NCBI GenBank assembly: GCA_000004695.1
Contig: CM000152.2
Coordinates: 4,160,001 to 4,224,000, forward strand
Reading direction: 5' to 3'
From: Dictyostelium discoideum
Lineage: Eukaryota
DNA length: 64,000 nt
Below, in pieces: positions 18,379-24,768 of the stretch (the first letter of the stretch is position 1; every line of letters starts with the position of its first letter). Under the pieces are notes generated by a model that was not told the DNA's origin, made no database searches, and was given only the letters and a program-made list of their open reading frames with translations. The position numbers and the translations under genes were made by a program.

Positions 18379-19137
18379 ATGTTATTTAATCAATATGTAT
18401 TTAAATATAAACAAGGATTTTATGGTCATAGGGAGTATGATTCAGTTTATTCAATAGCGTTGATTGATAGTTTATCATTACAAGAATTTATTTTTATAGT
18501 TAATAATTTAAATTATAAAATGCCTTATTATCTCTCAATTTTAAATAGTATTGCTTTATTTTTAATTTTCCCAATTAATATATTTTTATTTATATTCCAT
18601 CATAATTCTTGGATACAAACTTTTTTTTTATTATTTTTAATAGTTTTTTCTATTTTTTTATTTTCTATTAATATTTTCGAATTATATTTAGTAAGATTTT
18701 AATTCTTTTTTCTTTCTTTAAATATATAATATTTACCTTTTTTTTTTTTTTTTTTTTTATTACAAATTTTTTTTTTTTATTAATAGCCTAAAAAGAGAAT
18801 AATTACATTTATAGAAGAATTAAATAATGAATATTCAAATAGATTAATTTCATTTCATATTAATCAAGAAGAGGACATTGTTTTATTATATCCATTACCA
18901 GATCATTTTTATAAAAATGTTCCTTTCCCTTTTTTCCAAATACATCAACCAATTCAACAAGATCAAAATCAACAATTACAGGAACCATTACCTGGTAAAC
19001 AATACCAAGAGCAACAAAAACATGAAACATATACTTCAATTGATTTTCAACCAATTATTGAAACAAATCAATATTCCGAGCCATTGTTATCAGAAATTGA
19101 AGAATATACTCCAATAGATTTAAAAGAACAAATTTAA
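18379..19137 (+). CDS. Small polytopic membrane protein with a Gln-rich acidic C-terminal tail; join(18379..18690,18787..19137)
   Basis: ORF 18379..18702 is truncated at a TTA|GTAAGA donor (phase 0). An acceptor AG at 18785-18786 opens an in-frame exon ([20 protein letters not shown]...[12 protein letters not shown]). Exon 1 encodes 3-4 hydrophobic helices. There is no recognisable homolog. Confidence 0.4.
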
Positions 19138-19326: not shown

Positions 19327-20254
19327 TTATAATAATTTAATGAAATCAAAAGTTTGAACATCATTAGTATTGGTGATAGATTTGAAAGTGATAACAATGT
19401 TACCAGATTCGAATGACCATGACCAATAGCCACTTAAATTAGCATCGTGTTTAATAACGATAGTATGATTTGAAGTTACTTCTTGAACTGCTTCTAAAAT
19501 CATTTCATCTGCACAACGTTTTGAAAGATTTGCTGCTACTTTTTCAACGATACCAGCGAAGATATGACCGAAACTATTCTTTAAATCGTCAGCAACTTTT
19601 GGATAAACAGATTCTAATGATGATTCATCGATTGACCAATCTGATGATGATTTTAATGCTTTTTTAACTGATGATAAATTATCTTTCATTTTTTGTTCGT
19701 TTGTTTTAATATTTAAACGAGTCATTAATGAATAAACACCTTGAGTTTGAATAATTGTTTCTAATTTAAATGTGTTAACATCATTTGTGTTACATATCTT
19801 TGGACGGAATAAAATTTGACAATCACCATTTTCAAATTGATATTTCCAATATGATGATAACTTTTCATCAGCACAAACAAAAACAAATTTTTTATTTGGA
19901 ACTGCAGCTAAGAATGCTTCTTTGATTAAAGGATCTGCACCTACTTTAACCATGTTTTTAGCAAGATTACCAACAACATCTTTATAAAATATACTACCAC
20001 AACTATTTGTAACCCAAGAATCATTACATTTTGCAATAATATCTTCGAAATCAAATTCGATGGCAAATGGTTCCCCTAATGATTTTTCAATTAAGGCTAG
20101 ATTTGTTTTTAAAGATTCTTCATTATCTTTTAATGATTTTCTATAACAAATTGAATTTTTATATTAGTATTTATTTATATTAGGTATTGGTTTTTAATTA
20201 AACTTATTTTTTTAATTTAAATAATAAATACCTTGAAGTTAAAGCGAGAGGCAT
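19327..20254 (-). CDS. Tandem-family copy 1: 278-aa protein with an internal two-module repeat; join(complement(20232..20254),complement(19327..20140))
   Basis: A 23-nt first exon (MPLALTS + AG) is spliced (GT...AG, phase 2) to an 814-nt exon containing ORF 19327..19953. It is 98-100% identical to copies 2-4. Confidence 0.7.
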
Positions 20255-20653: not shown

Positions 20654-20940
20654 TTAAAGGTCAACATGAGCATATACTGCTAATATTGGATGGATAATAA
20701 CTAATGCATCAAGGGTTAAAAGAGCAGCATTATTATTAGATTGAGAAGTTCCAACAAAATGAGTTCCTGAAATTTGATTCTTTTGAGATGCACTTTGGAT
20801 ATTAGCAATTGAATTTAATGATTCTATTAGGTTTTTTAATTATTATTATTTTTTTTTTAAAACAATGTTAATTCTTAATTTTTTTTTTTTTTTTTTTTAT
20901 TTTTTTTTTTTTTTTTTTTTTATAACTTACTGAATAACAT
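20654..20940 (-). CDS. 59-aa small Ser/Asn-rich protein gene, copy s1 (hssA/sigN-like small-protein family candidate); join(complement(20931..20940),complement(20654..20823))
   Basis: ATGTTATTCA|GTAAGT first exon (10 nt, phase 1) plus a 170-nt exon give MLFKSLNSIANIQNSSQKNQISGTQLIGTSQSNNNAALLTLDALVIIHPILAVYAHVDL*. The coding exons are conserved among 4 copies while the introns differ. Confidence 0.6.
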
Positions 20941-21556
20941 TTTAGATTTTTAACAATTTAATACAAGTGTTTGATTATTTTTAATGATTAAAAAAAATAT
21001 TTTTTATTCATTTTATAGTTTTTTTTTTTTAATAATATTATTGTATTTTAAAATTATTATTAAAAGATTTCATATAATTTAATAATGAAAAAATAACCAA
21101 GTGATCAATTTTGATCAGCTTTTGAATCAATTATCTATTCTAATCAGTTAGAATTTATTTATTAAAAATCACAAAATCTGTTATTTAAATTTTGTGGTAT
21201 ATTAATTAATAAAAAAAAAAAAAAGAAAAAAGAAAATTGTAAAAATAAAATTAAACACATTTTAATAAAACCTTTAATGTATTTAAATTCTATTTTTACA
21301 AAAAAATTTAACATCGTTTGTATTAGTGATTGAGATGGCAATTTTTTAAATTGACCATAATGGACATTTAAGAAAAATGTGAATTAAAACAATATTATTT
21401 TTGTTATTGCCAATTAATATTTTTTTTTTTTTTTTTTTTATCTATTAACACAAAAAAATAACAGATTTTGGGGTTTTTTTTTAAAATTTTAAAGTTTTAT
21501 TAATAAAATGATTGGAGATTAAAGTAACTTTTAAAAAATAATAAGTTTATTTATTT

Positions 21557-21588
<32 letters not shown>

Positions 21589-21681
21589 AATAATAATATC
21601 AATAATAAAAAAAACTATAAAATAAAAATTTTATTTTTTTAATTTAATCATTAAAATTAATTAAAATATTAAAAATTTAAA

Positions 21682-21955
21682 ATGTTATTCAGTAAGTTTA
21701 ATAAAAATTATAAAATTTGTAATATTTTTAATATTGAAAACAATTTAATATTAATTATATTAAAAAAATTATAAAAATTATTTAGAATCATTAAACTCAA
21801 TTGCCAATATCCAGAATTCATCTCAAAAGAATCAAATTTCAGGAACTCAATTAATTGGAACTTCTCAATCAAATAATAATGCTGCTCTTTTAACCCTTGA
21901 TGCATTAGTTATTATTCATCCAATATTAGCAGTATATGCTCATGTTGACCTTTAA
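21682..21955 (+). CDS. 59-aa small protein gene, copy s2, transcribed divergently from s1; join(21682..21691,21786..21955)
   Basis: Same two-exon structure as s1. The exon-2 nucleotide sequence is the reverse complement of 20654..20823 (near-identical). Confidence 0.6.
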
Positions 21956-23475: not shown

Positions 23476-23732
23476 TTAAAGGTCAACATGAGCATATACT
23501 GCTAATATTGGATGAATAATAACTAATGCATCAAGGGTTAAAAGAGCAGCATTATTATTTGATTGAGAAGTTCCAATTAATTGAGTTCCTAAAATTTGAT
23601 TCTTTTGAGATACACTTTGGACATTTGCAATTGAGTTTAATGATTCTATTAAGTTTTTTATAATTTTTTAAAGGTTAGTTTTAAATTGTTTTCAATATTA
23701 ATAATTTTATTATTTAACTTACTGAATAACAT
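23476..23732 (-). CDS. 59-aa small protein gene, copy s3; join(complement(23723..23732),complement(23476..23645))
   Basis: Same structure. Its intron resembles the intron of s2 (the plus-strand copy of unit 1), indicating that the segment is inverted between units. Confidence 0.55.
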
Positions 23733-24499
23733 TTTAGATTTTTAATATTTTTATACAATTTATTAATTTTAATAATTAAATTTAATAAAAAAATTTTATT
23801 TATAGTTTTTTTAATTGATATTATTATTTTTTTGTTTTTTTTTATTTTTTTTTTTTTTTTTTTAACAAATAAACAACCTTATTACTTTTTAAAAGTCGCT
23901 CTAATCTCCAATCATTTTATTAATAAAACTTTAAAATTTTAAAAAAATAAAAAAAAACCCAAAATCTGTTATTTTTTTTTGTGTTAATAGATAAATAAAA
24001 AAAAAAAATAAAAAAAATAAAAAAATAATAATAATTGGCAATAACAAAAATAATATTGTTTTTATTCACATTTTTCTAAAATGTCCATTATGGTCAATTT
24101 AAACAATTGCCATCTCAAACAATAATAAAAATGATGTTCAATTTTTTTCTATAAATACATTAAAGGTGTTATAAAAATGTGTTTAATTTTGTTGTTACCA
24201 TTATTTTATCTTTTTTTTTTTTTTTTTTTTTTTTTTGAATTAATTACCACAAAATTTATATAACGTGTTATGTGGTTTTTAATAAAATTTTTTTACTGAT
24301 TAATAGATAATTGATTCAGATAGCTGATCAAAATTGATCACTTGGTAAATTTTTCATTAAAAAAAATTATATGAAATTTTTTTAAAATAAATTTAAAATA
24401 CAATAATATTATTAAAAAAAAAACTATAAATGAATAAAAAAAAATTTTTTAATCATTAAAAATAATCAAACACTTGTATTAAATTTTTAAAAATCTAAA

Positions 24500-24768
24500 A
24501 TGTTATTCAGTAAGTTATAAAAAAAAAAAAAAAAAAAAAAAAAACTACAAAAAATTAACATTGTTTTAAAAAAAAAAATAATATAAAAAACCTAATAGAA
24601 TCATTAAATTCAATTGCTAATATCCAAAGTGCATCTCAAAAGAATCAAATTTCAGGAACTCAATTAGTTGGAACTTCTCAATCAAATAATAATGCTGCTC
24701 TTTTAACCCTTGATGCATTAGTTATTATTCATCCAATATTAGCAGTATATGCTCATGTTGACCTTTAA
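24500..24768 (+). CDS. 59-aa small protein gene, copy s4; join(24500..24509,24599..24768)
   Basis: Encodes MLFKSLNSIANIQSASQKNQISGTQLVGTSQSNNNAALLTLDALVIIHPILAVYAHVDL*. Its poly-A-rich intron resembles the intron of s1. Confidence 0.55.

Follow-up and report, generated by a model that had tools for sequence, protein, structure and literature searches.

Introduction

The hssA/2C/7E genes of Dictyostelium discoideum, also referred to as sigN or HssA/B-like genes (Pfam PF05710, 'Coiled'), comprise ~96-100 members that encode proteins of less than 120 amino acids (aa) and are expressed in prestalk cells from 10-12 h (PMC2257962; PMC6198379). Clusters of sigN genes derive from a duplicated pair of divergently oriented genes, and the first exon is 13 nucleotides (nt) long in 89 of the 96 sigN-like genes and 10 nt long in three, sigN132, sigN176 and sigN183 (PMC2257962). 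Here we describe a locus on chromosome 3 of the same organism, within a stretch of 64,000 nt (contig CM000152.2, positions 4,160,001 to 4,224,000; hereafter, the window), that carries four genes for 59-aa proteins, designated A to D, in two divergent pairs. These genes do not appear in the 2008 list of 96 sigN-like genes, and none of the three sigN genes with a 10-nt exon matches them in size.

In the literature searched, only one paper names the four window genes (PMC3640940; Galardi-Castilla et al. 2013). Its authors, from the laboratory that defined sigN, carried out mRNA sequencing on 16 h structures of AX4 and of a mef2A- mutant, one library each, and placed the four genes under the heading 'hssA-related genes (prestalk-specific)'. 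Paralogues of these genes on chromosome 4 were listed in the same paper as 'small proteins (57-59 aa) (prestalk specific)' and were said to lack significant hssA similarity. The reading that we put forward, with a probability of roughly 70%, is that A to D are four real, already annotated two-exon genes, likely a divergent offshoot of hssA, that are de-repressed when Mef2A is lost and lie in an array evolving by duplication, gene conversion and recombination.

Results

Four two-exon genes in divergent pairs

The window has a G+C content of ~20%. A 16-mer that comprises exon 1 and the splice donor, ATGTTATTCAGTAAGT, occurs in it at four exact sites (20925-20940(-), 21682-21697(+), 23717-23732(-) and 24500-24515(+)) compared to 0.2 expected by chance, and a 38-nt stretch of the exon-2 core occurs four times as well, with an expectation of 0. 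In all four copies, joining the 10-nt exon 1 ATGTTATTCA to the block that starts with AATCATTAAA (after ...TAG) produces a coding sequence (CDS) of 180 nt for a protein of 59 aa. The splice layout is ATGTTATTCA/gtaagt...ag/AATCATTA, with a phase-1 GT...AG intron of 77-107 nt and an exon 2 of 170 nt (Table 1). A tblastn search of the whole 64-kb window revealed no fifth copy and no fragment, an Rfam search at E <= 1 found nothing between positions 19000 and 27500, and no tRNAs were present in the window.

All four proteins are identical to D. discoideum AX4 chromosome 3 entries labelled 'hypothetical protein', so that the reference annotation already includes the 10-nt first exon. Over 8.5 kb of the locus, the independent assembly GCA_054883475.1 shows 99.94% identity and zero mismatches, indicating that the repeat structure is not an assembly artefact. 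The first-pass annotation of this DNA, made from the sequence alone, had proposed four 59-aa protein-coding genes with a 10-nt phase-1 first exon in divergent pairs, a proposal that the spliced CDS of all four copies and the AX4 annotation bear out. The interval that it gave, 20654-21955, corresponds to pair A/B only, C and D forming a second pair (23476-24768), and its consensus peptide was nearly right, missing ...GTHFVG... in A (THF where the others have TQL) and ...ANVQSVSQKNQILGT... in C (V12, V15, L22). Its remark that such genes are easy to miss is true of three recent assemblies, whose annotations call no copy at the locus or its orthologue, and not of the AX4 reference, which has all four.

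A family restricted to Dictyostelium

The search of dictyostelid small-protein families that the same annotation had suggested recovered relatives in Dictyostelium only. A search with a single sequence returned just the four window genes. An exhaustive HMMER search with a profile, covering 1.84 billion representatives, added DDB_G0281615 (58 aa, E = 1e-10), DDB_G0283509 (57 aa, E = 4e-9) and UPI00004E4412, the hmmsearch E values of the three ranging from 1e-10 to 3e-5; its fourth match, a long and compositionally repetitive protein, was rejected as unrelated. A second profile search contributed DDB_G0283503, DDB_G0283517 and DDB_G0283465, with the chromosome 4 members at E = 1e-20 to 1e-24, and a cluster look-up contributed DDB_G0283505, DDB_G0283507 and DDB_G0283511. 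In the exhaustive HMMER and profile searches, members were found only among Dictyostelium small proteins, and a sequence search of the PDB with the family profile found nothing. The window genes thus belong to a Dictyostelium-restricted family of 57-62-aa proteins that is characterized by the N-terminus MLFKS[LF][NQ]SI..., a central QSNNN motif and the 10-nt first exon ATGTTATTYA, and whose similarity covers the N-terminal ~40 residues (MLFKS.xSI ... Q.N.I ... G..Q.NNN..L). As the structural signature of the family we took the ATGTTATTYA exon, a GTAAGT or GTATGT donor and a phase-1 intron, in that order, and the window copies carry it. UPI00004E4412, an obsolete 94-aa model that begins with MLFKIGIQ..., carries a complete MLFKSLQSI... 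member starting at residue 41 and probably represents a wrongly joined prediction of another, unplaced member of the family.

Chromosome 4 carries 13 copies. Twelve of them, all with ATGTTATTCA and a GTAAGT or GTATGT donor, lie head to tail ~870 nt apart; the remaining one, DDB_G0283465, reads ATGTTATTCA/GTAAGT and has a 201-nt intron of AAT repeats. In GCA_054883475.1 (locus L003, 6543-16302) the paralogues of the array are 57 aa long and their donors alternate between GTAAGT and GTATGT; the annotation of that assembly has two 57-aa calls and one 123-aa model spanning two adjacent copies, and misses the rest. On chromosome 3, DDB_G0281615 has ATGTTATTTA as exon 1. D. purpureum carries three tandem 62-aa genes with ATGTTATTCA or ATGTTATTTA as exon 1; the D. 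purpureum protein is borderline by sequence (E = 0.22, profile search) but its gene structure is the same. In D. cf. discoideum (GCA_054859235.1), the orthologous locus (L006, 523-10375) contains eight 59-aa genes in four divergent pairs, interleaved with the 278-aa X genes described below. All eight open reading frames (ORFs) are intact, and none of the eight is called in the annotation of that assembly. One of these copies, cf7305+ (L006, 7305-7576, +), has TG instead of AG at the acceptor and has lost the conserved TATA box while its ORF remains intact; it is probably a recently inactivated copy.

The window genes are 50-58% identical to the 57-59-aa prestalk group of PMC3640940 (DDB_G0283465 and DDB_G0283501-19 on chromosome 4; DDB_G0281615 on chromosome 3). 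Both have the 10-nt ATGTTATTYA exon, the phase-1 intron, the motifs MLFKS[LF][NQ]SI, QKNQI and SQSNNN(A)ALL and a length of 57-59 aa. They differ in arrangement, since the divergent pairs of the window alternate with a 278-aa gene whereas the chromosome 4 genes form the head-to-tail array of 12 copies, and in their tails, which are LLTLDALVIIHPILAVYAHVDL in the window copies and LLDAAALVVIPGLLTVAAVAHI in the chromosome 4 copies.

Relation to the hssA/sigN genes

Five paralogues matched PF05710 at 13.5-19 bits. For each of them this was the best-scoring Pfam match, one of the five also matching ACT_4 weakly, and the register was constant, with paralogue residues 2-35 aligned to profile positions 3-36. 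Genuine HssA/B-like proteins score 70-77 bits against the same profile. When the family profile was aligned using hhalign with HssA/B-like 49/50/52 and relatives, whose N-terminal module reads MT[IL][FL]SSISSISN..., 34 columns were paired at 41% identity (P = 2.2e-4, probability 45%), again with an offset of one residue; with its Ser-rich composition this alignment is suggestive and not decisive.

We then compared the gene structures. In four HssA/B-like genes, read directly, the 13-nt exon 1, ATGACACTTTTTT, encodes M-T-L-F plus one base and the phase-1 intron measures 87-95 nt; the layout (L008) is ATGACACTTTTTT/gtaagg...ag/CTTCAATC and exon 2 continues with S-S-I-S-S-I-S-N. In the window genes, M-L-F plus one base is followed by the phase-1 intron and then by K-S-L-N-S-I-A-N. 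Given the same phase and an offset of one codon, the intron lies at the equivalent codon, and the difference between 13 and 10 nt corresponds to the missing Thr codon. Thus, allowing a gap of one codon, the window genes have the hssA/sigN intron position, in phase 1 after the first base of the codon that follows Leu-Phe; the 13-nt first exon itself is replaced in them by one of 10 nt.

Other features are also common to the window genes and hssA/sigN: tiny products, a single phase-1 intron of ~70-110 nt, clusters derived from duplicated divergent pairs, and increased expression in the mef2A- mutant. The N-terminal modules look alike (M(T)LF-S-[IL]-[SN]-S-I-[SA]-N...K..I...G.S..N), and, going by the literature, the window genes may likewise be post-aggregative and prestalk-enriched. 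In contrast, the window proteins lack the Thr2 codon, are 59 instead of ~85-100 aa long and are devoid of the Gly/Ser/Cys-rich tail with its terminal CCG(I/N). The resemblance to hssA/2C/7E (sigN) noted in the first-pass annotation gains from the literature listing, the profile comparison and the intron position, and stops short at the Pfam threshold and at the absent Gly/Cys-rich tail. On the strength of sequence and gene structure, we consider common descent with hssA/sigN likely, formal membership of the family not being demonstrated.

Properties of the predicted proteins

The window proteins contain no Cys and two Gly and end in the tail AALLTLDALVIIHPILAVYAHVDL. A hydrophobic helix is predicted at residues 36-57 of 59, with a Kyte-Doolittle mean over 19 residues of 1.99 (residues 37-55), and inspection of the N-terminus, MLFKSLNSIANIQ, revealed no hydrophobic signal-peptide core. 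With no signal peptide and a single hydrophobic helix at the extreme C-terminus, the proteins resemble tail-anchored proteins in a comparison made on sequence only; unlike these, they have charged and polar residues and a Pro within the segment, an unfavourable Hessa sum and a tail that is not kept across the family. Specifically, the summed Hessa scale reaches +4.2 kcal/mol, an Asp, two His and a Pro make the segment marginal, and the hydrophobic tail is missing from DDB_G0281615 (Kyte-Doolittle 0.61) and from the D. purpureum members (0.25). AlphaFold, run with an alignment of 10 sequences, gave two helices of low confidence, an amphipathic one at residues 2-18 and another at 34-58, with a predicted local distance difference test score (pLDDT) of 52.7, and thus no model that merited a fold search. 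We therefore place low weight on a tail anchor, as the tail is not kept in DDB_G0281615 and D. purpureum, and regard only as tentative the proposal that the C-terminal helix serves the D. discoideum proteins as a membrane tether. The functional core of the family may lie in the ~35 conserved residues at the N-terminus.

A different fate for the products would be secretion, or export through vesicles as matrix or adhesion peptides in the way proposed for SigN, with no tail anchoring. Conservation of the N-terminus and not of the hydrophobic tail across the family agrees with such a fate, as do the staining of small vesicles and the disaggregation of mounds by SigN antibodies and the fact that prestalk cells produce the slime sheath and the stalk-tube matrix (PMC2257962). 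However, MLFKSLNSIANIQ offers no signal-peptide core, there is no Cys that could stabilise an extracellular peptide, the SigN antibodies are themselves of unproven specificity (PMC2257962), and in PMC6198379 the dictyBase label of the paralogue DDB_G0283505 is 'transmembrane protein'. Export appears rather unlikely on this balance. As for phenotype, deletion of 13 sigN genes had none (PMC2257962), so that redundancy is to be expected.

Expression, and the case against kinship

In Table 3 of PMC3640940, reads in the mutant and in the wild type, respectively, were 539 and 4 for DDB_G0281189, 79 and 0 for DDB_G0281191, 106 and 3 for DDB_G0281195, and 111 and 2 for DDB_G0281197. The chromosome 4 paralogues respond in the same way to the loss of Mef2A in that table; in the wild type at 16 h they have 24-211 reads compared to 0-4 for the window copies. 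According to PMC6198379, which draws on Parikh-2010 data, the chromosome 4 paralogues show no expression at 0-4 h and a maximum at 16 h, and their values of 8,368-29,561 in prestalk versus 62-568 in prespore cells represent a 15-135-fold prestalk enrichment. No consensus Mef2 site (CTAWWWWTAG) occurs in either intergenic region of the window pairs, and repression of the window genes by Mef2A is therefore probably indirect. GBF-type G-boxes are essentially absent.

Several observations weigh against our reading. With regard to expression, the wild-type counts of 0-4 reads at 16 h come from a single unreplicated library, reads are not reliably assignable among copies that are 92-95% identical, the window genes are absent from the cup- and stalk-specific lists of PMC6198379, and no splice-junction reads, expressed sequence tags or peptide evidence were seen for the four genes. 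With regard to kinship, the window proteins do not match PF05710 even at E <= 10, the best paralogue reaches 19 bits compared to a gathering score of 21.4 and so stays outside PF05710, the shared segment is rich in Ser and Asn and part of the similarity may be compositional, and the hssA hallmarks, a Gly/Cys-rich tail and a terminal Cys motif, are absent.

These points about kinship are those expected if the genes formed an independent, lineage-restricted orphan family whose likeness to hssA/sigN is due to convergence or to low-complexity noise. The hhalign probability of just 45%, the unrelated C-terminal halves and the statement in PMC3640940 that the 57-59-aa group has 'no significant similarity to hssA' go in the same direction. 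We nevertheless regard an independent origin as unlikely, since it leaves as coincidences that PF05710 is the best Pfam match of five paralogues in one register, that the one-residue offset equals the one-codon difference between the exons around an intron of the same phase at an equivalent codon, that accepted sigN members with a 10-nt exon exist, and that divergent-pair arrays and post-aggregative prestalk expression are common to both families.

Coding constraint and concerted evolution

The reading frame is open, exactly 180 nt long and free of indels in 12 of 12 copies from two lineages, D. discoideum and D. cf. discoideum, with introns of 75-107 nt, whereas exon 2 has 4-6 stops in its two other frames. 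Among these 12 CDSs, the sites that vary number 11, 9 and 19 at the first, second and third codon positions. Between the two lineages, the proportions of synonymous and nonsynonymous differences are pS = 0.175 and pN = 0.072, giving dN/dS 0.38. Values for deep paralogues are 0.2-0.5, and 0.2-0.6 when the comparisons among the D. purpureum copies are included, with dS near saturation, and those within the window are 0.30-0.74, with 2-6 changes per pair, too few to interpret. The only differences in exon 1, seen in D. purpureum, D. cf. discoideum and DDB_G0281615, are synonymous (TTC/TTT), and in one wild-strain allele DDB_G0281615 has lost 3 nt in frame. At the level of sequence, the dN/dS between lineages, the open frames, the synonymous-only exon 1 and the in-frame deletion establish that a protein is under moderate purifying selection.

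Near-identity of the coding blocks within the window has a different source. In codons 28-59, one set of substitutions is common to every D. discoideum copy and a second set to every D. cf. discoideum copy (including ACT/ACA, ACC-CTT/ACT-GTT, GCA/GGA and GTT/ATT), a pattern that points to concerted evolution. Synonymous divergence between the species is the same in the 3' half (pS 0.168) and in the 5' half (0.186), and the perfect identity of the 3' half in the window therefore reflects homogenisation and not nucleic-acid constraint. The near-identity is largely due to concerted evolution and not to selection alone. Introns are 73% alike in A and D, 63% in B and C, and 43-51% across the two gene types, the last figure being judged about background for such AT-rich DNA. 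Accordingly, the earlier statement that the introns have diverged applies between gene types and not within them, and the argument from conserved CDSs and diverged introns to purifying selection, confounded in the window by concerted evolution and by the placing of the recombination between the inverted arms in the 100%-identical 3' half of exon 2, finds its proper support in the comparisons across species and paralogues.

The same data bear on whether the transcripts, and not the peptides, are functional. There is a precedent in hssA, whose construct still suppressed the STATa phenotype after a frameshift (PMC6198379); the 3' half of exon 2 is nearly identical in nucleotides among window copies, and no protein evidence was seen. 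A functional RNA does not account, however, for a dN/dS below 1 at every depth, for third positions being the most variable, for 12 CDSs without an indel and an allele with an in-frame deletion, or for equal between-species pS in both halves of exon 2, and it finds no Rfam match; we hold it to be very improbable. Finally, the view that the 170-nt block is non-coding repeat DNA or consists of dead pseudogenes whose ORF is fortuitous, for which one might cite the repetitive region, the very low wild-type expression and the lost TATA box and AG acceptor of cf7305+, is effectively refuted by the retention of exon 1, donor and ORF in 4 + 1 + 13 D. discoideum, 7 of 8 D. cf. discoideum and 3 D. purpureum copies, by transcription (PMC3640940) and by the dN/dS of 0.38; the first-pass annotation had itself named a conserved block recurring elsewhere without an ORF as the observation to fear, and the other copies found keep exon 1, donor and an intact ORF.

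Promoters and a probable inversion in pair 1

A TATA box, CTATAAAW, lies 67-78 nt upstream of the ATG in 11 of 12 genes of the window and D. cf. discoideum (CTATAAAA in pair 1 and CTATAAAT in pair 2; Table 1). As each gene has its own box, the ~740-bp region taken earlier for a shared bidirectional promoter consists of two separate core promoters placed back to back. Each pair is an imperfect palindrome, 71% self-complementary over ~1.5 kb, and its two genes represent two ancient types with unrelated promoters and introns.

By their promoters, A and D match type 1 of D. cf. discoideum, and B and C match type 2. By their 3' flanks, A and C carry type 2, and B and D carry type 1. Promoter and flank types agree in pair C/D and in all four D. 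cf. discoideum pairs, and are crossed in pair A/B. The simplest reading of this crossing is that recombination between the inverted exon-2 arms turned the centre of pair 1 around. The inverted centre would comprise both promoters, both exons 1, both introns and the 5' parts of both exons 2, with the exchange point within ~100 nt of the 3' half of exon 2 over which the copies are 98-100% identical. Gene C looks mosaic, suggesting additional conversion tracts.

Upstream motifs were also considered. A motif shared by A, B and C, AATAACAGATTTTGKGG, was dropped: its 4 matches compare with 1.76 expected, 11 of 100 shuffles reach 4, and it is absent at the paralogous loci. The sequence AATAACAGATTTTG(K)G(G) occurs at 21169-21185(-), 21457-21473(+) and 23957-23973(-), ~210-245 nt upstream of A, B and C, and in a degenerate copy upstream of D; its frequency in the window does not exceed chance, and the paralogous loci lack it.

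One may speculate that recombination between the inverted coding arms keeps reshuffling the arrays, and that an inversion like that of pair 1, by exchanging the two ancient promoter types between 3' contexts, would act as a natural promoter swap that diversifies the regulation of homogenised CDSs, in genes that would represent a distinct tail-anchored prestalk/stalk microprotein offshoot of the hssA superfamily. We judge this combined proposal to be improbable.

Neighbouring 278-aa genes

The repeat unit of the array consists of an X gene plus a small-gene pair. The four X copies (Table 1) are 95-97% identical in DNA and have two exons, the first of which encodes MPLALTSR. Within the X protein a repeat occurs twice (...SSYWKYQFENGDCQILFRPKICNTNDVNTF... 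and ...SGYWSWSFESGNIVITFKSITNTNDVQTF...). The protein gave no significant Pfam match (only Nup54 at E = 0.21, far under threshold) and only a chance-level match in the PDB (E = 0.17), and its predicted structure, with a pLDDT of 33.6, is unusable. Two X copies are reported to be up-regulated in a DNMA (DNMT2) knockout (PMC12405889). A 5' link between small and X genes, through ...ag/A(A)AATCATTAAA at the start of exon 2, was discarded as coincidence because the likeness ends at ~10 nt.

A second locus on chromosome 3 (L004, 3971-6926; L007, 6929-9914) has the single gene DDB_G0281615 between the X-family genes DDB_G0281613 and DDB_G0281617. Between the two loci, X proteins are ~94% identical and small proteins only ~50%, a contrast that could reflect either faster evolution of the small genes or homogenisation of the X genes between loci.

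Table 1. Positions of the small genes, their promoter regions and the neighbouring X genes in the window
Feature	Identity	Position	Strand	Details
Gene A	DDB_G0281189, 59 aa	20654-20940	-	exon 1 20931-20940 (ATGTTATTCA); intron 20824-20930 (107 nt, GTAAGT...TAG); exon 2 20654-20823 including stop; exact match to EAL66891.1/Q54UA3
Gene B	DDB_G0281191, 59 aa	21682-21955	+	exon 1 21682-21691; intron 21692-21785 (94 nt); exon 2 21786-21955; exact match to EAL66892.1/Q54UA2
Gene C	DDB_G0281195, 59 aa	23476-23732	-	exon 1 23723-23732; intron 23646-23722 (77 nt); exon 2 23476-23645; exact match to EAL66894.1/Q54UA0
Gene D	DDB_G0281197, 59 aa	24500-24768	+	exon 1 24500-24509; intron 24510-24598 (89 nt); exon 2 24599-24768; exact match to EAL66895.1/Q54U99
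Pair 1 intergenic region		20941-21681		741 nt (ATG to ATG 741 nt); two back-to-back promoters, imperfect palindrome
Pair 1 TATA box for A	CTATAAAA	21011-21018	-
Pair 1 TATA box for B	CTATAAAA	21615-21622	+
Pair 2 intergenic region		23733-24499		767 nt (ATG to ATG 767 nt); ancestral orientation
Pair 2 TATA box for C	CTATAAAT	23798-23805	-
Pair 2 TATA box for D	CTATAAAT	24424-24431	+
X1	DDB_G0281187, 278 aa	19327-20254	-	exon 2 19327-20141; exon 1 20232-20254; no known domain
X2	DDB_G0281193, 278 aa	22117-23047	-	between the two small-gene pairs
X3	DDB_G0281199, 278 aa	24950-25867	-
X4	DDB_G0281201, 278 aa	26363-27263	+	inverted copy closing the array

Discussion

The explanation that we find most likely is that the family of the window genes is a truncated, divergent offshoot of the ~100-gene hssA/2C/7E superfamily (sigN, HssA/B-like, PF05710). 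The offshoot would have kept the N-terminal module of ~35 residues and the tiny first exon with its phase-1 intron, one codon shorter, while the Gly/Ser/Cys-rich tail would have been replaced by a short hydrophobic helix. The genes are transcribed from individual TATA promoters during multicellular development, almost silent in the wild type at 16 h and de-repressed 35-135-fold, probably indirectly, when the MADS-box factor Mef2A is missing. The array evolves through tandem duplication of an ancient divergent pair, whose two gene types have different promoters, and bears the marks of gene conversion and, apparently, of recombination between inverted exon-2 arms. In prestalk cells, the product might be a microprotein that is membrane-associated (tail-anchor-like) or vesicle-borne and that acts redundantly with its many paralogues.

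Much of this is already known: the genes are annotated, their expression is published and their kinship with hssA was already suggested by the group that defined sigN. Current understanding is unchanged, and the genes flagged in the window were catalogued beforehand. Modestly new are the exon/intron argument that links the 57-59-aa group to hssA/sigN, the proposed inversion of pair 1 together with the concerted evolution of the array, and the finding that recent automatic annotations miss nearly all these genes. Automatic pipelines applied to new Dictyostelium assemblies call no copies here or at the orthologue and few of the chromosome 4 array; the curated AX4 annotation has the genes, and lift-over or a dedicated profile is therefore needed for new assemblies.

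Transcripts for proteins of the hssA/sigN type are among the most abundant in prestalk cells, and these proteins have no established function. If the N-terminal module and the intron are indeed shared with hssA/sigN, the superfamily would be extended by the genes described here, and the N-terminal ~35 residues would be pointed to as its functional core.

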